Shown here one piece after another: positions 41,440-64,000 of a DNA stretch of 64,000 nt. The DNA is taken from IMG/VR virus record IMGVR_UViG_3300023179_000021, positions 32,001 to 96,000 of that record. One strand, written 5' to 3'. The stretch's first letter is position 1; every line of letters begins with the position of its first letter. The notes beneath the pieces were generated by a model. That model did not search any database. It was not told the origin of the DNA and saw only the letters and a program-made list of their open reading frames with translations. Position numbers and translations under genes: made by a program. The stretch comes from a virus.

Positions 41440-43151
41440 TGATAATTTTTCAAAAAATCCGTTGGAAGAATTTACTTTCAACAGGTAATAATTACACAGA
41501 AATTAACTTATCAACAAACACCAATACACTGATTGTTGGTGAAAATGGCTCAGGCAAATCTACAATGCTTGATGCTTTATGCTTTGGTTTATTTGGTAAA
41601 GCTTTTCGTTCAATTAATAAACCACAACTTTTAAACAGTATTAATCAAAAAGAATGTGTAGTTGAAATTGAATTTGAAGCCAATAACAAAACCTATAAAA
41701 TCATTCGTGGCATCAAACCAAATATCTTTGAAATCTATTGTAATGGCACTCTGCTTAATCAAGAGGCTGCATCAAGAGATTACCAAGAACACCTCGAAAA
41801 ATTTATACTGAAACTTAATTATAAATCTTTCACACAGATTGTTATTCTTGGTTCAGCTTCATTTACGCCGTTTATGCAACTTTCGGCATCTGACCGCCGA
41901 ACAATCATTGAAGACTTGCTCGATATACAAATATTTTCGACGATGAATGGATTAGTCAAAGAACGATTATCAGCCAATAAAGAAAGTACTTCATCTATTA
42001 AACATCAAATTGATTTATTTACCAAAGAATATGAGTTAAAAAAGAAACATATTGAAGACCTCAAAAAATCAAATGATGATGAGGTGAAGCGATATGAAGA
42101 AGAGATTCAAAATAATATTGAAACTATAAGTCAACTATTGGCAAATAATCAAGTTCTTACAATTAGAACTGAAGAATTAAATCATGAAATTTCAAATAAA
42201 ATTGATTGTGAAAACAAAATTAAAAAGATTACAAAACTTGAATCTCAAATTGAAAACAATATTTCCAAGTATGAAAAAGATATAAGTTTTTTTACAAATA
42301 ACAATGATTGTCCAACATGTAGGCAATCAATAGTTTCTGAATTCAAAGAAGAACAAATTAATTCTCTTGGTATTAAAAACAATGATTCTAAGGCCGCTCT
42401 TGAACAACTTAAAAGAAAACTTAAAGATGAACAAGAAAGGCTAAATGAAATCAATGAAACACAATCCTTGATTCAAAGTTTTGTTGTAAAAATTGCTACA
42501 AATAATACTTCAATCAATGAAACAAACAAGTATATTAACAAACTTCGTAAAAAAATTGAAGAACTTACCACGGACAAATCAAATACAGAGAAAGAAGGCA
42601 ACAACCTAAAAGAATTACAGGACTCTTTGTCTCAACTACAAGAATCGTTAAAAGAACTAATACAAGAAAAAGCATACTTAGAAGTGGCCTCAACGCTATT
42701 GAAAGATACTGGCATTAAAACAAAGATTGTCAAACAATATCTTCCAATTATTAACAAACTGGTCAATAAGTATTTAGCTCTTTTGGATTTCTTTGTGAAC
42801 TTTAACCTTGATGAATCGTTCAAAGAAACAATTAAGTCTCGGCACCGTGATGATTTTTCATATAATAATTTTTCAGAAGGTGAGAAACAAAGAATTGATA
42901 TGGCTCTTATGTTAACTTGGCGTGCTGTTGCTAAGTTAAAAAATTCAGCCAATACTAATTTATTGATACTTGATGAAACGTTTGATTCAAGTTTGGATGC
43001 CAATGGAACCGAATATCTAATGACAGTTTTACACACATTAGAGGGGGTAAATTTATTTGTTATTTCACATAAAGGTGATGTGTTGCAAGATAAATTCAGT
43101 AATGTTATTCGTTTTGTAAAGGAAAAGAATTTCTCTAAGGTGATAAAATGA
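41439..43151 (+). CDS. gp46: recombination ATPase gp46 (Rad50/SbcC-like)
   Basis: GENGSGKST, CPTC hook, FSEGEK, LILDE. Confidence 0.95.
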   Translation: MIIFQKIRWKNLLSTGNNYTEINLSTNTNTLIVGENGSGKSTMLDALCFGLFGKAFRSINKPQLLNSINQKECVVEIEFEANNKTYKIIRGIKPNIFEIYCNGTLLNQEAASRDYQEHLEKFILKLNYKSFTQIVILGSASFTPFMQLSASDRRTIIEDLLDIQIFSTMNGLVKERLSANKESTSSIKHQIDLFTKEYELKKKHIEDLKKSNDDEVKRYEEEIQNNIETISQLLANNQVLTIRTEELNHEISNKIDCENKIKKITKLESQIENNISKYEKDISFFTNNNDCPTCRQSIVSEFKEEQINSLGIKNNDSKAALEQLKRKLKDEQERLNEINETQSLIQSFVVKIATNNTSINETNKYINKLRKKIEELTTDKSNTEKEGNNLKELQDSLSQLQESLKELIQEKAYLEVASTLLKDTGIKTKIVKQYLPIINKLVNKYLALLDFFVNFNLDESFKETIKSRHRDDFSYNNFSEGEKQRIDMALMLTWRAVAKLKNSANTNLLILDETFDSSLDANGTEYLMTVLHTLEGVNLFVISHKGDVLQDKFSNVIRFVKEKNFSKVIK

Positions 43152-43723
43152 GTGAAGAATTTTTAGTTATTAATACAGAACAATCTTTGGTTAAGCCAAA
43201 AGCATTAGAACCATTGCCATTGTATGATGAAAACTATTCGATGTTGAAACAAAAGATGCCTGATTATACTGGTCAATTACCAAATCAAAATATGACCAAC
43301 CTCATTGAGCGTATGAAAATGACAATGAGAAAGTTTTCGGGCATTGGTCTTTCGGCAAACCAATGTGGTATTATGACCAGAATGTTTATTATTGGGCATG
43401 AAAACTTTGAACTGGTGTGTATCAACCCTAAGGTTCTTGGCCAATCGGCAGAAATAATTAAAGGCGATGAAGGTTGCCTCTCTTTTCCCGGTTTGTTTTG
43501 TAAGATAGAAAGGCCTGCATGGATCGATGTTGAATTTATGAATGAAAAGGGTGAGATTCTACAGACAAGACTTGAGGGTTTAACTGCAAGATGTTATTTA
43601 CATGAACTCGATCACATGAATGGAATTAAATTAATTGACCATGTTGGCCCTGTAGCTTTAAAAATGGCTCGTGAAAAACAAAGAAAACGTATTAAAACAA
43701 TTACTAAACGATTGAAAAAATAA
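43148..43723 (+). CDS. def: peptide deformylase
   Basis: GIGLSANQ, EGCLS, HELDH. Confidence 0.95.
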   Translation: MSEEFLVINTEQSLVKPKALEPLPLYDENYSMLKQKMPDYTGQLPNQNMTNLIERMKMTMRKFSGIGLSANQCGIMTRMFIIGHENFELVCINPKVLGQSAEIIKGDEGCLSFPGLFCKIERPAWIDVEFMNEKGEILQTRLEGLTARCYLHELDHMNGIKLIDHVGPVALKMAREKQRKRIKTITKRLKK

Positions 43724-45000
43724 TGTCTTACTCATTTGACCCTAAAGATGATGTTGATACACAATGGCAAAAATGGCGCGATTCTGGTTTAACTTTTCAA
43801 CAAATCGACGAAGAAAAACTCCGAACTAAAGTAATTGAAGAACTTACTTATGTTTCAAAGATGGATGTTAAAGAGTACACTTTGTATCAGAAATGGTGTG
43901 AGGTGCAAGAAAAATACCCTTCAACTATTATAAATGATTTATGGGAAGGCCAAAAATGTGTTCTGCAAGATGAAGATCAACGCCGCGCTATCGATGAAAT
44001 AAAACGCAATTTTTGGATACCTGAAACATCTGAAGCTTACGAAGCACTAGAACCAGAACTTCTTTACACCAATAAAGAAAAAGGTCTGCCTGAATTGTGG
44101 AATTGTATTCGCACATTCTCTTCAACAATGAAAAACAATTCAAACATCGGCCGTAATCTTAATTTTATTGTGCGTGATCGAATCACTAAGAAATATCTTG
44201 GTGTGATTTGTATTTCATCAGATTTTCTTGACCTCACACCAAGAGATAGGTACATTGGATGGTCAAGAGAATTAAAAACGCAAGGCGGTATGATTAATCA
44301 CACGGCCATCGGTTCAACAATTGTACCTTTGCAACCACTTGGGTTTAATTATGTCGGTGGTAAACTTCTTGCTCTACTTTGTCTTTCGGATCCAATACAA
44401 GAACTTTGGGAGAAATTGTACGGTGATAAGTTGGTGTCTATAACCACCACATCACTCTATGGTAAAACAAAGGCGGATGGTCTATCCCAGTATGACAATC
44501 TAGACTACTGGCAGAAAATGGGATTCACTTCAGGTTCCGTGTCGTATGAACCTACCAATGAAACAAGGTATATGATTCGTGAGTGGCTTAAAACAAATCA
44601 CACACGGAGATACTTTGAATGGTATATTGCGAAGAAACCATCTGGTCAACCACATAAACGTGACCATAAGAATCGTTCATTGACCTTTGCGTATTCTAAA
44701 CTCAATGTACCAAAAGAATTTATTAAATCTGACCATGCTCGTGGTATTTACTGGTGCCCTTTGTATGCTGAATCAGTAGAGTTTCTCCGAGGCGAACATG
44801 ACGGCAAGAATATGAAAAAATGTTTTGATTCTTCGATTCAAGACCTAAGTAATATATGGAAGAATAAACATGCAAGGCCTCGAATTAAACAATTAGTAAA
44901 AAAAGACCGTGTTTCACATGATACTCTTTTCTATGACAATTTGGCAACCTTGTCTTGGGAAGAAGCAAAGTCTATGTATCTTCAACAAGTTGGCAGGTAA
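43723..45000 (+). CDS. DUF4338/DruA-like protein, putative Mom-related GNAT-fold DNA-modifying enzyme
   Basis: GRNLNFIVRD, RDRYIGW, IVPLQPLGFNYVGGKLLA, TTTSLYG, SQY..L..W.KMG.T.G. Confidence 0.6.
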   Translation: MSYSFDPKDDVDTQWQKWRDSGLTFQQIDEEKLRTKVIEELTYVSKMDVKEYTLYQKWCEVQEKYPSTIINDLWEGQKCVLQDEDQRRAIDEIKRNFWIPETSEAYEALEPELLYTNKEKGLPELWNCIRTFSSTMKNNSNIGRNLNFIVRDRITKKYLGVICISSDFLDLTPRDRYIGWSRELKTQGGMINHTAIGSTIVPLQPLGFNYVGGKLLALLCLSDPIQELWEKLYGDKLVSITTTSLYGKTKADGLSQYDNLDYWQKMGFTSGSVSYEPTNETRYMIREWLKTNHTRRYFEWYIAKKPSGQPHKRDHKNRSLTFAYSKLNVPKEFIKSDHARGIYWCPLYAESVEFLRGEHDGKNMKKCFDSSIQDLSNIWKNKHARPRIKQLVKKDRVSHDTLFYDNLATLSWEEAKSMYLQQVGR

Positions 45001-45430
45001 AACCTTTATGAATTTTGTATTTACCTTTAGCCACATTGTACATACAACTTTCATAAAGATTATTTTCTTTACAGAATTTTTTAAGATTTTTAACCTTTTC
45101 GGTTTTACCGTCAGGAAAAGTTACTAACCAATTTTTCGAAAGTGTGTTTGCTATTTTATTTTTTTGTATTTGACTGTTTGGGATGCCTTTGTTCCAGGTT
45201 GTAATTCCTTTCAGAGCGAGACTTATTTTATCTTTAGATTCTTGTGTGTGTTTTTTGCCCAGATTAAGTTCTCTTAAGATTTGTTTTGTTGATTCGTGGA
45301 GTTTTTCTCCTTTAATTGCACCTCGATAAGACCAAACAGCATCATTTGGAATTTCTATTGGATTGTTTTTGATCCATTCACGCAGTTCTGTGGTCCAATC
45401 ATCATCTAGATTGTGAGAATAAATACTCAT
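44972..45430 (-). CDS. NUMOD3-repeat DNA-binding protein (homing-endonuclease-derived; no recognisable nuclease domain)
   Basis: GKKHTQESKDKIS, WNKG, C-terminal NLKKFCKENNL...HKGF. Start moved to ATG 45430, after SD AAGGA. Confidence 0.7.
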   Translation of the reverse strand: MSIYSHNLDDDWTTELREWIKNNPIEIPNDAVWSYRGAIKGEKLHESTKQILRELNLGKKHTQESKDKISLALKGITTWNKGIPNSQIQKNKIANTLSKNWLVTFPDGKTEKVKNLKKFCKENNLYESCMYNVAKGKYKIHKGFTCQLVEDT

Positions 45431-45508
45431 GCTGACATTCCTTACTAATGTTAGAGTGGGTGCAGACGGCAATCTGGCGACCCACACCTATATATGCCGT
45501 TAAAACTC

Positions 45509-45537
45509 TTGACAAATTACATATATATTAGTATAGT
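45509..45537 (+). promoter_or_regulatory. sigma70 promoter driving the tRNA-like RNA
   Basis: TTGACA-17 nt-TATAGT; expected +1 is 2-3 nt before the RNA. Confidence 0.8.
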
Positions 45538-45545
45538 CCAAATAT

Positions 45546-45611
45546 GCGGTGAGTCCGAGACAGCTTACCTTCCCAGTAGGCAGAGAGGTTTAACTCCTCT
45601 GAACCGCTCCA
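45546..45611 (+). tRNA. atypical tRNA-Gly(TCC) with a reduced D-arm
   Basis: GCGGT/ACCGC acceptor stem, U73, encoded CCA; anticodon stem GCTTAC/GTAGGC with loop CTTCCCA; T-arm AGAGG-TTTAACT-CCTCT; mini D hairpin GTC-CGA-GAC. Confidence 0.75.
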
Positions 45612-45647
45612 CTTCTGTTGTATAAAAACAACAAAAAAGTTTAATGA

Positions 45648-45660
45648 AATCAATGACTTA
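45648..45660 (+). promoter_or_regulatory. IHF-binding consensus site
   Basis: AATCAATGACTTA matches WATCAANNNNTTR, with an upstream A-tract, 8 nt before a -35 box. Confidence 0.55.
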
Positions 45661-45668
45661 CAAAGCGC

Positions 45669-45697
45669 TTGACAAATCACTGCGGCTAGAGTAAGAT
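45669..45697 (+). promoter_or_regulatory. sigma70 early promoter
   Basis: TTGACA-17 nt-TAAGAT. Confidence 0.75.
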
Positions 45698-45725
45698 GGT
45701 AACATAAATCATTACGGATATCGAT

Positions 45726-48062
45726 ATGTCATTTACTGCTGAACAAAAATCGCAACTTGCCAAACTGATGGCGACCGAGAATTTGACGGTTCAACACCAG
45801 AAAATTTCAACAGCCAAATTTGATCCTAAAAACCGTGTATTGTATCTCCCAATCTGGCAGGATATGTCTGGTGATCTTTATGATCTCTTGGCAGGCCATG
45901 AAGTTGGTCATGCTCTTCATACTCCCGCTGAAGGTTGGCACAATGCTGTAGTTGACAAAACAAAGCCTGCTTCATACAAAAACTTTTTGAATGTCGTTGA
46001 AGATGCTCGTATTGAGAAAAAAGTAAAGCGCCGGTATCCTGGTCTTCGCTTGCCTTTTCAGAGAGCATATAAAGAGCTTTTCGACCGTGATTTTTTTGGT
46101 ATTCGGAACCGTGACCCTAATAAATTGCCTTTTATCGACCGTTTGAATATTTACTCAAAGTCACAATACACTGCTTCGTTCCTTGAATTCAATGAGCGTG
46201 AACTTGATTTTGTTGATAGAATTCAAAAAACTGAAAGCTGGGATGATGTTGTTGCCTTGACCAATGAAATTTTCGAATACTCAAAGGAAGAGCAATCTCA
46301 AATCCAACATACTGATTTTGATCCAGACAATTATGGTGAAGATGGTTTTGATGAAGATTCCGCTTTTGATGAAGTTGACCAAGATGAAGATGGTCAAAGT
46401 CAAAACGGTACCAAGTCTAAGGCTGGTGATGAAAACGAAGGTGATGAATCGGAAGCCGAGGGTGATGGTGGTGCCGATGGTTCAAATGACAAAGGCGAAA
46501 CTGGTGAATCTAAAGGTTCTCGGCTGAATCGTTTCAAGGACTCGGAGGAATCTGATGAAGATCAATTTGAGCCAGAATGTATTACTGATGAAAACTTCCG
46601 TAAAAATGAAGACTTATTGCTTGATGCACAAAGCAAACCTTTTGTTTATGTAAATGTGCCAAAATTCAATGCGAAACATAGCATCACGCCAGCAAGCCGT
46701 GTGGTCGAACAAATCAATGATTATTATACAAAAGGATTTTCGCTCACGGAAGTTCTATCTGCGGCTGATATCCAAAAATTGATCGGCGATTTCAAAAATC
46801 GAAATGAACGGTATATTGGTTTACTTGCTAAAGAATTTGAAATGCGTAAAGCTGCCAAAGCTTTTAGTAAGTCTAAGTTGTCCGACACCGGCGATATTGA
46901 TGTTGCTAAACTTTCATCTTACCAGTTTGATGACAACATTTTCCGCAAAGTGATGTTGACACCAAAAGGTAAAAATCATGGTCTTATGTTGTTACTTGAC
47001 AAATCGGGTTCCATGGCCGATAACATGCCTGGTTCAATTGAACAGATTTTGATTCTTGCTATGTTTTGTCGCAAAGTGAATATCCCGTTTGTGGTGTACG
47101 GATTCGGTAGTTCCTATCGTGCTCGGAAGACTGATTTTCCTGGAGAGTACCTTAAGAATGATGATGGTTCGGGAAAAGTTTTTTCTGCTCATAGCAATGA
47201 TCTCCGTTTCAGTGAAGTTTATCTCCGTGAGTATCTAAATTCAAGCATGTCAAACATGGAATTTATGTCGGCTGTCAAAGCTTTGTTGTTACTCAAGCGG
47301 TCATTTGAAATGAAATGGCGCTCCAGTCGGCCCGATTCAGAAGATTTATCGAATACTCCGTTGACCGAGGCTGTATTTGCTTGCACTCATTTGATGCAAA
47401 AATTCCGCCAAAAACACAACCTAGACCTTTCAAGTTTGGTGGTTGTACATGATGGTGATTCAGACTCTATTGGTTCTTTTTATCAACAAAGTGAACCTGG
47501 ATTGAGTAAGTACACCAACAGTTTCAGTACAATTATTCATAACGTGATTGTTCAGGATCGCCAAAACAAATTTGAGTATAAGTTGAAAACTCCTGATCCT
47601 TCGAAGGCTCACTTTGATCCAATGCTTCTGTGCGCTATTGAGTATTTCAAACAGCTAAGTAATTCAAAGGTGTTTGGTTTCTTCTTGACAAGCGGCAGTC
47701 GTGGTAGTGCAAAGGCTTCAATTATGAACCGCTATGTGTTTGACGATGGCGAAAACTTTGAATCTCTTGAAAAGAAAGCTTTCAGAAGCCATAACTATAA
47801 TGAAAAAGCTCGTGTCAATCAACAATTAGATTTGATGGTGAAGAAGTTTAAAGCTGAGAAGTTCCTGATCAGCAAACCAAAAGGCTACAATGAATTTTAT
47901 ATTGTGGCTGGTGGTGATGAATTGGTTACCGAGGCTGATGAAATGGAAATCGAAGGCAAAGTGACCTCATCCAAATTGAAAGCCGCCTTTTTAAAGATGA
48001 ACAAAAAGAAAGCCATCAATCGTGTTTTGGTCTCCCGTTTCATCCAGGGCATTGCCGCCTGA
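45726..48062 (+). CDS. CobT-like protein: HExxH metallopeptidase-like N-terminus, acidic linker and VWA domain
   Basis: HEVGHAL, NVVEDARIE, D/E-rich linker, MIDAS LLLDKSGSM, TPL, HDGDS. Confidence 0.8.
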   Translation: MSFTAEQKSQLAKLMATENLTVQHQKISTAKFDPKNRVLYLPIWQDMSGDLYDLLAGHEVGHALHTPAEGWHNAVVDKTKPASYKNFLNVVEDARIEKKVKRRYPGLRLPFQRAYKELFDRDFFGIRNRDPNKLPFIDRLNIYSKSQYTASFLEFNERELDFVDRIQKTESWDDVVALTNEIFEYSKEEQSQIQHTDFDPDNYGEDGFDEDSAFDEVDQDEDGQSQNGTKSKAGDENEGDESEAEGDGGADGSNDKGETGESKGSRLNRFKDSEESDEDQFEPECITDENFRKNEDLLLDAQSKPFVYVNVPKFNAKHSITPASRVVEQINDYYTKGFSLTEVLSAADIQKLIGDFKNRNERYIGLLAKEFEMRKAAKAFSKSKLSDTGDIDVAKLSSYQFDDNIFRKVMLTPKGKNHGLMLLLDKSGSMADNMPGSIEQILILAMFCRKVNIPFVVYGFGSSYRARKTDFPGEYLKNDDGSGKVFSAHSNDLRFSEVYLREYLNSSMSNMEFMSAVKALLLLKRSFEMKWRSSRPDSEDLSNTPLTEAVFACTHLMQKFRQKHNLDLSSLVVVHDGDSDSIGSFYQQSEPGLSKYTNSFSTIIHNVIVQDRQNKFEYKLKTPDPSKAHFDPMLLCAIEYFKQLSNSKVFGFFLTSGSRGSAKASIMNRYVFDDGENFESLEKKAFRSHNYNEKARVNQQLDLMVKKFKAEKFLISKPKGYNEFYIVAGGDELVTEADEMEIEGKVTSSKLKAAFLKMNKKKAINRVLVSRFIQGIAA

Positions 48063-61640: not shown

Positions 61641-62991
61641 GGAATTTACTCGTAAAGTATTGCCATTTATTCAATCAGAATATTTCGCCGACAACAAAGA
61701 TAAAACACTTTTTAACTTTGTTTCACAATTTGTCAATAAATATAAAACATTGCCAACTTATGAATCTCTTGTTATTGAATTAAATAACTCAAAAAAACTT
61801 ACCGATCAAGAATTAAAAAATACTTTAAATTTACTTGATGAAATAAATCAAAACAAAAGCGAGCCTACAGAGTTACAGTGGTTAATTGAACAAACCGAAA
61901 AGTTTTGCCAAGACAAGGCGATTTATAATGCCATTATGGAATCGGTAACAATACTTGATTCTAAAAACACAAACAAGGACAAGGGTGAAATCCCTAAGTT
62001 ATTATCAAATGCGCTTGGTGTTTCTTTTGATTCTCATATTGGCCACGATTATATTAATGACTACGATTCCCGTTTCGAATTTTACCACCGACAAGAAACT
62101 AGAATATCATTTGATTTAGACCTTTTTAATACAATCACCAAAGGTGGTCTACCAAATAAAACACTCAATATTTGTCTTGCTGGGACCGGCGTTGGCAAAT
62201 CAATGTTTATGTGTCATGTGGCTGCATCTTGTTTATCTCAGGGCTTGAATGTTCTTTATATTACACTTGAGATGGCCGAAGAAAGAATCGCCGAGCGTAT
62301 TGATGCCAATCTTTTAAATGTATCAATGAACGATCTACATTCTATGACAAAATTGGAGTATGATCGTAAGTTTCAATCATTGCGAAATAAAACACAAGGC
62401 AAACTTATCATCAAAGAATATCCAACGGCGGCAGCCAATGCACTACACTTTCGTTCGTTGCTAAATGAATTGCACCTTAAAAAGAATTTCGTGCCGCAAA
62501 TTATCTTTATTGATTATCTGAATATCTGTTCTTCGGCTCGCATTAAACCTGGTGCCAATGTTAATTCTTATTCTTATATCAAGGCGATTGCAGAAGAACT
62601 CCGTGGTCTTGCTGTTGAATTTAATTTACCTATTGTTTCAGCGACACAAACAACAAGGTCGGGCTATACAAACACTGACATTGGTCTTGAAGATACTTCC
62701 GAATCTTTTGGTCTGCCTGCAACCGCTGATTTTATGTTTGCTCTAATTTCAACAGAAGAATTAGAACAATTAAATCAAATCATGGTCAAACAATTAAAGA
62801 ATCGATATGCTGATCCAAATTTTAATAAAAGGTTTGTAATCGGCGTTGATCGTTCGAAGATGAAGTTGTATGATGTTGAACAATTGGCACAAACTGGTAT
62901 TGTAGATTCTGGCCAAGATGATCCGCCGCTAAATACTTTTGGAAACCGTGAAAGTAAATTCAATCGTAAGTTTGAAGGCTTTAAAGTATGA
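61597..62991 (+). CDS. gp41: replicative helicase gp41 (DnaB-like)
   Basis: AGTGVGKS, ITLEMAEE, IDYLNI, SATQTTR, SESFGLPATAD. Confidence 0.96.
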   Translation: MRLETSILKNLIFNEEFTRKVLPFIQSEYFADNKDKTLFNFVSQFVNKYKTLPTYESLVIELNNSKKLTDQELKNTLNLLDEINQNKSEPTELQWLIEQTEKFCQDKAIYNAIMESVTILDSKNTNKDKGEIPKLLSNALGVSFDSHIGHDYINDYDSRFEFYHRQETRISFDLDLFNTITKGGLPNKTLNICLAGTGVGKSMFMCHVAASCLSQGLNVLYITLEMAEERIAERIDANLLNVSMNDLHSMTKLEYDRKFQSLRNKTQGKLIIKEYPTAAANALHFRSLLNELHLKKNFVPQIIFIDYLNICSSARIKPGANVNSYSYIKAIAEELRGLAVEFNLPIVSATQTTRSGYTNTDIGLEDTSESFGLPATADFMFALISTEELEQLNQIMVKQLKNRYADPNFNKRFVIGVDRSKMKLYDVEQLAQTGIVDSGQDDPPLNTFGNRESKFNRKFEGFKV

Positions 62992-64000
62992 AACTGAATA
63001 AAGAACAGGCGCTTCATTGCGCTGAAGCCTTTTCTAATTATTTTGACCGATTTGGCCGTATTGATGATTACATTCGTGACCAGAAACTAAATTCATTATC
63101 TTCAAGGCCGACTACTCTACCTGGGATGGGACCCGAAGAAGATTTATTTTCTGATTTTACCATGCACCCAAACGACATGAATTTGGAGTTGGTCGAATTG
63201 CCTCAGGACAGTTGGGACATTTATTTAAATATGATTTCTTCTCATTCAAATATGACCAGTATTCCAGGCCGGTGTTTTCGTTTGGCTGTTCTCGAAAAGA
63301 ACACAAATAAATGGGTTGGTTTTATTCGCCTTGGTTCACCAGTTATCAACATGAAACCACGAAATGAACTTCTTGGTGGAGTATTTACACAAACAAAAGA
63401 ATCAGCCAGAGCCTTCAATCAAACAACTATCATGGGTTTCGTAATTGTGCCATCGCAGCCATTTGGTTATAATTATCTTGGTGGTAAATTATTGGCGGCC
63501 ATTTGTTGCTCTCATTGGGTTCGTGAGCAGTTGAACAAGAAGTATGATATGAATACTTGTATGTTTGAAACAACCAGTCTCTATGGTACATCGAAATCTT
63601 CATCGCAATATGACGGTATGAAGCCCTTTTTGAGGTTTAGTGGTCTTACCGACTCCGATTTTCTGCCAATGATGCACGGTAAACCTTATGAAGAACTCAA
63701 AGACTATGTTGAAAATGCTGTTGGTGTTATTGTGCCACCTGAAGCCTCTAGTCGTAAACTTAAAATTTCAAATAAAATTATCAGTATGACCAAAGTGGCT
63801 CTAAAAGGTGAACCAGAATACGGCAAATTTATAACAACGATTCAAAACGCATTGTCTTTGACTGAAAAGAAACGATATTATTATTCAAACTACGGCTTCT
63901 CCAACTTTACAGATGTGGTGATGGGCCGCGCAGATAAGTTGGTGCCAGACAAGGAGAATTATGATAAGTTTCGCCTCGACAACATTATTAACTGGTGGAA
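62988..64000 (+). CDS. second DUF4338/DruA-like protein, 3'-truncated (not in the ORF track)
   Basis: Translated by hand: MKLNKEQ...PGR..RLAV.EK...VGFIRLGSP...IVPSQPFGYNYLGGKLLAAICCS...ETTSLYG...SQYDGM. Confidence 0.75.
   Translation, partial: MKLNKEQALHCAEAFSNYFDRFGRIDDYIRDQKLNSLSSRPTTLPGMGPEEDLFSDFTMHPNDMNLELVELPQDSWDIYLNMISSHSNMTSIPGRCFRLAVLEKNTNKWVGFIRLGSPVINMKPRNELLGGVFTQTKESARAFNQTTIMGFVIVPSQPFGYNYLGGKLLAAICCSHWVREQLNKKYDMNTCMFETTSLYGTSKSSSQYDGMKPFLRFSGLTDSDFLPMMHGKPYEELKDYVENAVGVIVPPEASSRKLKISNKIISMTKVALKGEPEYGKFITTIQNALSLTEKKRYYYSNYGFSNFTDVVMGRADKLVPDKENYDKFRLDNIINWW

Follow-up and report, generated by a model that had tools for sequence, protein, structure and literature searches.

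The window (the whole 64,000-nt stretch of DNA that was analysed) comes from a contig of an aquatic T4-like phage. Positions 43723..45000 of its forward strand hold a gene for a 425-aa protein of the DruA family (DUF4338, PF14236) with a predicted GNAT fold, and farther along the same strand, at 45546..45611, lies a 66-nt RNA element derived from tRNA-Gly. Between the two are an ORF of 152 aa with a NUMOD3 motif, on the reverse strand (44972..45430), and a promoter-like site of the sigma-70 type on the forward strand (45509..45537). An earlier note on this DNA had drawn attention to a tRNA-Gly-like RNA beside the 425-aa gene, and every part of that arrangement was found in place. Besides the NUMOD3 ORF, the neighbours are Mre11/Rad50-like genes and genes for a peptide deformylase, a VWA/CobT-like protein and a CobS-like AAA protein. 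The DruA-family gene follows the deformylase gene both in the window and in its relatives, while its homologues in other phages are found not beside deformylase but among genes for DNA polymerase, RNase H, clamp loader and helicase. A Megablast search against the phages in GenBank found no near-identical record.

The 425-aa protein carries the motifs IVPLQPLGFNYVGGKLL and TTSLYG...SQY...W.KMG.T, which the earlier note likened to GNAT motifs A and B, describing the gene as a DUF4338/Mom-like GNAT. As regards family, the Mom half of this reading needs correction. Pfam places the protein in DruA/DUF4338 (residues 105-357, E 7e-20, 71.8 bits where the cut-off is 27), as does PADLOC (E 4.8e-18), and its PHROG assignment is phrog_19197; no NCBIfam model matches either this protein or the second DruA paralogue of the genome. 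DruA is the only Pfam family found in the 425-aa protein, and Mom (PF25680) the only one found in Mu Mom. An hhalign comparison of a DruA alignment with a 30-sequence Mom alignment gave a probability of 0.1%, comparison with Mu Mom alone gave no relation, and a phmmer search of the protein against PDB returned only noise. A 13-residue RGVY match to Mom was dismissed as insignificant. These profile comparisons put the protein in the DruA family and outside the Mom family.

The GNAT half fares better, and agrees with the description of the DruA family as GNAT by Aravind and colleagues (PMC10853773). An AF2 model of the protein (pLDDT 94.7) consists of an N-terminal region of ~100 aa without a recognised fold, a core at residues ~105-370 and a helical C-terminus. 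All 50 matches listed in both VIA structure searches are GNAT-fold proteins, aligned over residues ~105-370 with Z from 9.6 to 7.6, and on the strength of this model the fold of the GNAT superfamily can be considered established. Mom (8bv8) ranks first among 48,161 chains (Z 9.6, rmsd 4.1-4.3), but ordinary acetyl-CoA GNATs reach Z 9.0-9.4, and a difference of less than one Z unit is a tie, so that Mom is the best match in name only; its alignment is also the longest (171-188 residues, versus ~145-150 for most other matches). FemA is among the listed matches (Z 8.0), and TacT/AtaT and TmcA are absent from those 50. Foldseek against PDB produced nothing but weak GNAT matches, all of them above E 0.001 (TmcA, 2zpa, had E 0.13). 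A winged helix, suspected in the N-terminal domain from the order of its secondary structure, was not borne out when the domain was folded alone (best PDB Z 4.2), nor did the PDB structure search reveal any recognised DNA-binding fold in that domain.

The core has one feature that sets it apart from Mom. Classical GNAT motif A (Q/R-x-x-G-x-G/A) binds the pyrophosphate of CoA. In the 425-aa protein, Q204-P-L-G207-F-N209 follows the strand at 194-202, the beta4-alpha3 position of that motif, and Q204, G207 and K214 (of GGK214) are invariant or nearly so in the DruA family alignment. Because DruA proteins keep this motif-A-like Q-x-x-G-x-N, which the Mom consensus lacks, it is possible that they use acyl-CoA.

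The RNA element has an acceptor stem of five Watson-Crick pairs (GCGGU/ACCGC) followed by G.A and A.G, a D region reduced to a mini hairpin (3-bp stem, 3-nt loop), a distal hairpin of 5-6 bp with the loop CUUCCCA, a T-stem of 5 bp with the loop UUUAACU, and a discriminator U before an encoded CCA. Its GC content, 56%, exceeds the 35.7% of the whole genome. The marks of a canonical tRNA (a match to RF00005 or by ARAGORN, a D-arm, a 7-nt anticodon loop) do not occur together in it. ARAGORN in standard mode, even at lowered thresholds, makes no call on the window RNA, and Rfam (RF00005 etc.) gives no RNA match at gathering score, nor at E 10 over 900 bases, an annotation gap shared by both tools. 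A call by ARAGORN in metazoan-mitochondrial mode was rejected as background, since that mode makes 20 calls in the 145.6-kb genome. Trimmed to its conserved boundaries, the RNA has the cloverleaf as its MFE fold (-20.4 kcal/mol); folded with its flanks it does not, and the z-score of -1.66 is not significant. The reality of the RNA is judged here from comparative data on conserved instances and helix covariation.

A covariance model (R1) matches the window RNA at 78.9 bits (E 2e-16), its sole match in the genome, and the RNA recurs about 120 times, as 52 unique sequences, on more than 100 related IMG/VR contigs. Across 30 distinct sequences, 95.6% of the cells in 16 proposed pairs are indeed paired, compared with 41.7-52.5% in controls with slid partners. 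Nine of the pairs vary on both sides, none of 500 shuffles reached the covariation score, and compensatory changes are found in three helices. The cloverleaf is obtained by MFE alone in 44 of the 52 unique variants. Conservation starts at G1 and stops at CCA, with variable sequence on either side, and the single-stranded segments stay the same even among contigs that share just 58-80% identity in the neighbouring protein. Comparison of the variants thus confirms a real, structured RNA.

What the RNA retains is telling. The determinants of bacterial alpha2beta2 GlyRS are G1:C72, C2:G71, purine4:pyrimidine69, U73, CCA and C35/C36 (PMC10464925). In the RNA, G1:C72, C2:G71, G3:C70, purine4:pyrimidine69, U73 and CCA are all kept, and the distal loop has two or three C's, so that the identity set is present at the level of sequence, aminoacylation itself being a prediction. 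Of the 52 variants, 50 retain GCGG/CCGC-U-CCA, and almost every distal loop contains CC; the CCC of the loop shows little or no variation. The loop ranges from 3 to 8 nt, and its flanking bases vary. In one relative, L027, the syntenic spot is occupied by a canonical tRNA-Gly(UCC), which the Rfam tRNA model scores at 67.9 bits and which has the same acceptor end. From this tRNA at the same position, together with the kept acceptor end and CC loop, I conclude by sequence comparison that the RNA descends from tRNA-Gly.

What it has lost is what the ribosome would need. The reduced classes measure 63-70 nt and lack the D-arm save for a 3-bp vestige; the T-loop is UUUAACU, or UGCGAAU in other classes, and some classes have G33. 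Most close relatives have a distal loop of 4 nt, CCCC or CCCA. The 7-nt 'anticodon loop' CUUCCCA, which contains UCC, is thus peculiar to the window. Judged from these features, the absence of a D-arm/T-loop elbow and, in most relatives, of a 7-nt anticodon loop establishes the RNA as unfit for decoding. The note's picture of a tRNA-Gly derivative that keeps the GlyRS determinants and has lost decoding features therefore accords with the sequence variants and with the published identity set (PMC10464925); a loss of EF-Tu features, which the note also proposes, may accompany this. The same source reports that alpha2beta2 GlyRS needs the arms and the whole L-shape, and for that reason an RNA without a D-arm may be a poor substrate.

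The promoter-like site, TTGACA-17-TATAGT, ends 8 nt 5' of G1 and at 11 of 12 positions matched is the best such site within 43000-46500. In 48 of the 52 unique variants G1 is preceded, at a distance of 8-19 nt (mostly 8-14), by a -10 box resembling TATAAT, and a full TTGACA-17-TATAAT is found between the DruA stop codon and the RNA in many lineages. The promoter had been called dedicated to the RNA. Its -35 box in the window, however, sits within the additional DNA carrying the NUMOD3 gene, and only the -10 box is common to relatives without that DNA.

The NUMOD3 ORF starts at ATG 45430, preceded by an AAGGA ribosome-binding site, and overlaps the 3' end of the DruA gene by 29 nt. Its motif is recognised by Pfam (E 3.8e-6), and the homing/HNH endonucleases that it matches among the PHROGs are matched only in the C-terminal parts of their profiles; its likeness to homing endonucleases is confined to their DNA-binding part. 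The closest relatives (L015 and L016, with 96% and 94% protein identity) have no NUMOD3 ORF, and in them the RNA begins 24 nt past the stop codon; in three others (L030, L046, L048) that position holds an additional ~520-550 nt, and the upstream flank of the RNA is shared. Comparison with these relatives indicates that the NUMOD3 gene is an insertion separating the RNA from the DruA gene, as had been proposed.

The association of gene and RNA proved tighter than could have been known from a single sequence. The RNA normally starts ~24-70 nt past the stop codon of the DruA gene, and the element is present at 77 of 78 informative loci anchored on that gene. Among 30 informative loci anchored on the adjoining gene, 26 have both the gene and the RNA and four have neither; those four are one lineage, so their co-loss counts as a single event. 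The two remain adjacent where the protein has diverged to as little as ~58% identity, across five or more RNA classes, where the RNA is duplicated in tandem, and despite insertions that separate them (this window and L085). Different RNA classes adjoin near-identical proteins, from which it seems that nothing beyond the common acceptor end and CC loop is required. Farther afield, HTVC008M and Mosig, both of which carry the gene, have an odd tRNA-Gly(ACC) 2.5-4 kb away, in HTVC008M the sole tRNA. The distant DruA homologues L096-L100 (42-50% identity) have no tRNA-Gly within 3 kb, nor does one lie beside a cyanophage homologue or the second DruA paralogue of the genome. The coupling of the pair within its own lineages is established by these counts, and it is very probable that gene and RNA form one functional unit.

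How such a unit might work is suggested by Mom. The earlier note mentions that Mom uses Gly-tRNAGly, and this is published: Mom takes glycine off Gly-tRNAGly, attaches it at N6 of adenine in double-stranded DNA, and recognises its donor mainly at the acceptor end (PMC13219725), the very part that the window RNA keeps. By analogy, the phage would make a small RNA from a promoter of its own, descended from tRNA-Gly; host GlyRS would charge it with glycine; the loaded RNA would be kept from translation; and the adjacent DruA-family GNAT would take glycine from this private donor, a step that would parallel the use of Gly-tRNAGly by Mom and of non-proteogenic tRNAGly by the staphylococcal Fem enzymes. 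The most likely acceptor would be the phage DNA, in a Mom-type base modification that shields it from host nucleases.

That the DruA-family GNAT takes its glycine from the RNA seems to me about as likely as not. In favour are the GlyRS determinants kept, the decoding features lost, the tight coupling of the genes, and a GNAT fold with Mom, itself dependent on Gly-tRNAGly, at the top of the matches. Against it are the requirement of GlyRS for an L-shape, the absence of any sequence relation to Mom, the tie in Z between Mom and acetyl-CoA GNATs, the conserved motif-A-like Q-x-x-G-x-N, distant homologues without a nearby tRNA-Gly, and an N-terminal domain without a recognised DNA-binding fold. 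That homologues sit among replication and recombination genes favours a Mom-type modification, but DNA as acceptor is a tentative and rather doubtful proposition.

The known systems each resemble the pair in part. Mom, like the DruA-family protein, is a single phage enzyme of GNAT fold, but it comes from another sequence family and has 241 aa, whereas the protein here has 425 with additional N- and C-terminal parts. Its catalytic residues are R111, S124, D149 and R151. Mom also relies on the tRNAs of its host and lacks a dedicated RNA gene such as the phage here has. The non-proteogenic tRNAGly of staphylococci, partner of FmhB/FemA/FemB, has T-loop UGC or UGU in place of UUC (PMC7826273), and UGC occurs in several of the RNA classes described here. 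Those tRNAs are cell-encoded, full-size cloverleaves serving a peptidoglycan precursor as acceptor; the RNA here is phage-encoded, measures 63-70 nt in its reduced classes, retains just 3 bp of the D-arm and often has a distal loop of 4 nt, and the enzyme is a DruA GNAT rather than a Fem protein. DruA of type I Druantia belongs to the same family by Pfam and PADLOC, but the gene here is flanked by phage replication and auxiliary genes, and no druB-druE operon lies around it, such as type I Druantia would include together with its large DruE helicase. DruA-like proteins have been noted in Synechococcus phages (Phold preprint, 10.1101/2025.08.05.668817). My search of the literature found no biochemical function for DruA and no link between DruA and tRNA.

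Glycine carried by the RNA could instead be passed to a protein, a cell-envelope precursor or lipid, or a small molecule. L/F-transferase acts at protein N-termini, and Fem and MprF act on an envelope precursor or lipid. All the evidence from the RNA fits such acceptors equally well, FemA is among the structural matches, the N-terminal domain offers no recognised DNA-binding fold, and the gene follows that of peptide deformylase, an enzyme acting on protein N-termini. The top structural match is nevertheless the DNA-modifying Mom, over the longest aligned stretch, and the homologues elsewhere adjoin genes of DNA replication; I consider a different acceptor unlikely.

A lower place goes to an ordinary acyl-CoA GNAT for which the RNA is the substrate, acylated either on its charged glycine or on a loop cytosine. 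The toxins TacT and AtaT acetylate aminoacyl-tRNA, and TmcA acetylates cytidine C34 of tRNA; these too are GNAT enzymes with tRNA substrates. The motif-A-like loop and GGK at beta4-alpha3, compatible with acyl-CoA and unlike Mom, the acetyl-CoA GNATs less than one Z unit from Mom and the near-invariant CCC of the loop would all suit such an enzyme, and TacT is cited in PMC13219725 as acting on Gly-tRNAGly. TacT, AtaT and TmcA, however, target the translating tRNAs of the cell and have no private RNA partner, and a private, non-translating substrate would be of no benefit to a toxin-like enzyme. An acylated mini-tRNA has no known role, and a loop of 3-8 nt with varied flanks fits the reading of CC by GlyRS better than it fits a modification site.

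Less probable still, the RNA may be independent of the GNAT, as a tRNA mimic that decoys a host defence or enzyme directed at tRNA, a regulator, or an RNase P or processing signal for the 3' end of the DruA mRNA, their linkage being inherited synteny. Its own promoter in many lineages would be in keeping with this, as would the Gly-like tRNAs kilobases from the gene in HTVC008M and Mosig, the single co-loss, and the distant homologues with no tRNA-Gly adjacent; but inherited synteny sits badly with adjacency that survives divergence, class changes, duplication and insertions, the invariant positions are those GlyRS reads, and U73, CCA and the CC loop would be superfluous for simple processing. 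A functionless tRNA-Gly pseudogene or chance tRNA-like fold, for which the silence of tRNA finders and Rfam and the fold with flanks might speak, is contradicted by covariation in three helices, sharp boundaries at G1 and CCA, the conserved upstream -10 box and the invariant single-stranded segments beside diverged proteins, and is very improbable.

To return to the RNA as glycyl donor, the idea is known in parts, in that staphylococci use cellular non-proteogenic tRNAs and phage Mu borrows a host tRNA; my literature search found no paper describing the gene-RNA pair or a viral RNA dedicated to carrying an aminoacyl group. By its sequence the pair points to a system that would furnish itself with activated glycine, perhaps for the modification of DNA. 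If so, a virus encodes a dedicated aminoacyl carrier for a reaction outside translation, abundant aquatic T4-like phages harbour an unrecognised modification of DNA (or of something else), and there is a first biochemical handle on DruA/DUF4338, the family to which the eponymous protein of type I Druantia belongs. A wider extrapolation, for which I would not claim much likelihood, is that the whole family, including Druantia DruA, DndF fusions and the copies in insertion sequences, consists of aminoacyl-tRNA-dependent modifiers of nucleic acid, with a minimal carrier RNA in the phages. In that event the private tRNA-Gly mimic would reveal the cofactor of DruA, and a viral carrier RNA of 63-70 nt would be charged by the host and invisible to the ribosome. 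The series of RNAs from canonical tRNA-Gly to the 63-nt forms is also a natural experiment on which parts of a tRNA persist when just a synthetase and a transferase must read it.

A last observation concerns the lineage that lacks the pair. The 525-aa ORF found in the slot was considered as a DNA methylase, but this assignment is weak (below the Pfam cut-off, PHROG E ~1e-5, nothing in PDB or NCBIfam). The ORF shares the slot with a small GNAT gene, and the presence there of a GNAT and a methylase-like ORF is a weak piece of context for DNA modification.

The DruA-type gene (43723-45000, + strand) lies on the contig of a T4-like phage (IMG/VR record; 145,640 bp, 35.7% GC, estimated completeness 83%). 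Both motifs that an earlier note on this sequence had likened to GNAT motifs are present in the 425-aa product of the open reading frame. The protein matches the Pfam family PF14236 (DruA/DUF4338) with an E-value of 7e-20, as well as PADLOC DruA and phrog_19197, and its nearest cultured relatives are found in the Pelagibacter phages Mosig (58% identity) and HTVC008M (55%). The candidate RNA (45546-45611, + strand) is the next feature after a promoter-like site recognized by sequence match, TTGACA-17-TATAGT (45509-45537, + strand). On the opposite strand, a NUMOD3-motif ORF (44972-45430) sits precisely between the stop codon of the DruA gene and the -10 box of the RNA; it probably starts at the ATG at 45430, behind an AAGGA. 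Profiles of homing endonucleases match it only in their DNA-binding parts and revealed no nuclease domain.

Standard tools do not recognize the RNA. ARAGORN in its standard mode found nothing in the window, Rfam gave no match even at an E-value of 10 over 900 bases, and the fold of the element with flanks included is unremarkable. (ARAGORN's metazoan-mitochondrial mode does call a D-loop tRNA-Gly(tcc), to which I give no weight, there being 19 other such calls in the genome.) Comparison with relatives nonetheless argues that the RNA is real. An exact 23-mer of the element is present on 11 IMG/VR contigs, and blastn and nhmmer found the element on about 70 of 80 contigs retrieved through the DruA-type protein. 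When 30 distinct sequences were aligned, invariant single-stranded segments and three covarying helices emerged, with a switch between U-A and A-U at acceptor pair 5 (20:10) and another between C-G and G-C at T-stem pair 2 (13:13); several pairs of the distal hairpin switch as well. Of all cells, 95.6% are paired, as against 41.7-52.5% with slid partners; both sides change in 9 of 16 pairs, and none of 500 shuffles reached the covariation score. Conservation is bounded exactly by G1 on the 5' side and by the encoded CCA on the 3' side. Cut at these boundaries, the window RNA has as its minimum free energy (MFE) fold an acceptor stem closing three hairpins, a fold that 44 of 52 unique variants reach by MFE alone, and 48 of the 52 have a TATAAT-like box 8-19 nt (mostly 8-14) ahead of G1.

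Just 3' of the RNA's CCA is a palindrome, TGTTG-N8-CAACA (45614-45636), which many loci (e.g., L006, L017 and L023) have in the equivalent place with varying spacers. With an A-run behind it in place of a T-run, it looks unlike a simple terminator; it may be a protein-binding site.

The descent of the RNA is evident from a relative, L027 (IMGVR_UViG_3300006802_000077), whose DruA-type protein is 80% identical to that of the window. At the position of the RNA, 24 nt past the stop codon and preceded by TGTTATAAT, L027 carries a canonical tRNA-Gly(UCC), called by ARAGORN, scoring 67.9 bits on the Rfam tRNA model and having the same GCGG...CCGC-U-CCA end. The element thus descends from a tRNA-Gly. 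More divergent classes of RNA at the same position came to light with a motif scan and with R1, a covariance model derived from the alignment. GCGG/CCGC, U73 and CCA are kept in 50 of the 52 unique sequences, and almost all distal loops have CC or CCC. The positions kept coincide with the determinants published for bacterial alpha2beta2 glycyl-tRNA synthetase (GlyRS), namely G1:C72, C2:G71, purine4:pyrimidine69, U73, C35 and C36 (PMC10464925). What has been lost, judging from the sequences, is what translation needs. The D-arm has shrunk to a 3-bp/3-nt hairpin without G18G19, and the T-loop reads UUUAACU in the window and UGCGAAU, UGCAAAC or AGCAAAG in others. The 7-nt CUUCCCA loop of the window, with its nominal UCC anticodon, is a local variant and not a conserved anticodon, because most close relatives have a distal loop of just 4 nt (CCCC or CCCA) and G occupies position 33 in other RNA classes. 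The replacement of UUC by UGC in the T-loop is common to some of these classes and to the staphylococcal non-proteogenic tRNAGly that serves Fem transferases (PMC7826273).

The RNA of relatives usually starts 24-70 nt past the DruA-type stop codon. The gap of 545 nt in the window is due to the NUMOD3 insertion, as the earlier note had proposed: the two nearest relatives, at 96% and 94% identity, do not have this DNA, and three other loci (L030, L046 and L048) are longer by some 520-550 nt at that site. The extra DNA, at approximately 45001-45530, includes the TTGACA box that now precedes the RNA.

The phylogenomic linkage between gene and RNA proved to be tight. Of 80 loci anchored on the protein, 78 had enough downstream sequence to judge, and the element is present in 77, the sole exception (L045) having only 191 nt downstream, a stretch that resembles another insertion. 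An independent test, anchored on the downstream 778-aa gene, considered 30 loci with enough upstream sequence. The DruA-type gene is present in 26, every one of which has the RNA, and the motif scan, R1 and ARAGORN found no RNA in the four that lack the gene. These four (L125, L123, L126 and L136) are 92-100% identical, a single lineage, and so represent one co-loss event. In them, the place flanked by peptide deformylase and the 778-aa gene (L125 1402-3404) is occupied by a 143-aa GNAT (Acetyltransf_1) and an ORF of 525 aa that at its C-terminus weakly resembles N6/N4 DNA methylases (24.7 bits in Pfam, below cut-off; PHROG E-value about 1e-5).

The pair persists in L085, despite 1.3 kb of inserted DNA, and where the RNA is duplicated in tandem, in L081 (1361-1500), L094 (3901-4040) and L088 (3907-4046). 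In these three, two different RNAs, 3-4 nt apart and 3' of the DruA-type gene, each have their own GCGG...CCGC-U-CCA end. In a rapid maximum-likelihood tree of the protein, the RNA classes are intermixed, AGCAUAG-type RNAs adjoining proteins nearly identical to those beside UUUAACU-type RNAs. This scatter suggests recombinational swapping of cassettes, and the RNA seems to be exchangeable so long as the acceptor end and the CC loop stay.

The GNAT fold of the protein, also anticipated in the earlier note, was assessed with an AlphaFold2 model based on 66 homologues (pLDDT 94.7, pTM 0.92). Foldseek returned weak rows only, nearly all of them GNATs. VIA-align was run twice, once on the Foldseek hits and once, independently, against 48,161 representative chains; both times Mom of phage Mu (PDB 8bv8) came first (Z 9.6, 171-188 residues aligned, rmsd 4.1-4.3, covering model residues 104-358), followed by acetyl-CoA GNATs (Z 9.4-7.6) and FemA (Z 8.0). 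These matches establish the fold for the modeled protein. The preference for Mom among GNATs is nominal, although its alignment is the longest; hhalign of the two family alignments found no link at the level of sequence (probability 0.1%), and Pfam keeps DruA (PF14236) apart from Mom (PF25680). Modeled separately (pLDDT 83), the N-terminal 104 residues matched no known fold (best Z 4.2).

The chemistry of Mom bears out the earlier note's account: Gly-tRNAGly supplies the glycine that Mom attaches to N6 of adenine in dsDNA (PMC13219725; preprint 10.1101/2023.03.24.534169), after which the glycyl group rearranges to carbamoylmethyl (PMC13219725). Mom uses all three E. coli tRNA-Gly isoacceptors and not Gly-tRNAAla, probably reading the acceptor end, and its authors point out that use of host Gly-tRNA could burden translation (PMC13219725). 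A private carrier RNA would remove that burden. DUF4338 has been termed a GNAT domain (PMC10853773), and the Phold preprint notes DruA-like proteins in Synechococcus phages, giving no function (10.1101/2025.08.05.668817). A literature search found no paper tying DruA proteins to tRNA or describing the RNA. Systems of a known kind, tRNA-dependent GNAT transferases with a dedicated tRNA-Gly, would be joined by one absent from the literature searched.

What the comparisons show is a conserved, tRNA-Gly-derived RNA, apparently separately promoted and predicted to be unable to decode, that is tightly coupled genetically to a DruA-family GNAT gene. In this the observation of the earlier note is borne out; its interpretation, glycyl transfer, is partly supported. 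Gene and RNA very probably form a functional unit. In the mechanism I propose, host GlyRS would charge the RNA with glycine, the charged RNA would be kept out of translation, and the GNAT would take glycine from it as from a private donor, a role for the RNA on which I consider the case evenly balanced. Phage DNA would be the likeliest acceptor, because Mom is the nearest structure and DruA homologues in other phages sit among replication or recombination genes, yet I hold this only tentatively. That the same glycyl chemistry serves an acceptor other than DNA is unlikely. A GNAT that modifies the RNA itself, using acyl-CoA, is rather improbable; behind strand 194-202, where GNATs carry motif A, Q204-P-x-G207-x-N and G-G-K214 are conserved among DruA proteins and have no counterpart in the Mom consensus, so DruA proteins may use acyl-CoA. 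I would give still less credence to a role for the RNA independent of the GNAT. A pseudogene, contradicted by the covariation, is scarcely credible.

The cultured myophages HTVC008M and Mosig have the DruA-type gene without an adjacent RNA. Both have an unusual tRNA-Gly(ACC) 2.5-4 kb downstream of it, after cobS (L002 8998-9071 = HTVC008M 91140-91213; Mosig MT647606.1 7779-7852, - strand), with non-canonical T-loops (AGCGUUA and GGCAGUA). Rfam detects no other tRNA in HTVC008M, and the tRNA-Gly of Mosig falls short of E 0.01 on the Rfam tRNA model. The two phages also share a GC-rich hairpin (GCTGTGCGA...TGACGCA; Mosig locus L001 5700-5745, HTVC008M locus L002 5125-5160), just 3' of the DruA-type gene in HTVC008M or of the next gene, MazG, in Mosig. 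It occupies the region where relatives carry the RNA, and R1 gives no match to it.

A second DruA-family gene (371 aa, PF14236 E-value 1e-10) directly follows a DnaB-like helicase gene at the window's end (62988-64000, on to G000:C1:96104; L145 1989-3104). Its core motifs are 36% identical to those of the first, and it is similar to the cyanophage type; in this genome neither an R1 match nor a tRNA was found beside it. In a more distant phage lineage, with no tRNA-Gly found within 4.5 kb, two tandem DruA-family genes (457 and 363 aa; L096 187-2651, L097 127-2591) lie directly in front of the gene for a family-B DNA polymerase.
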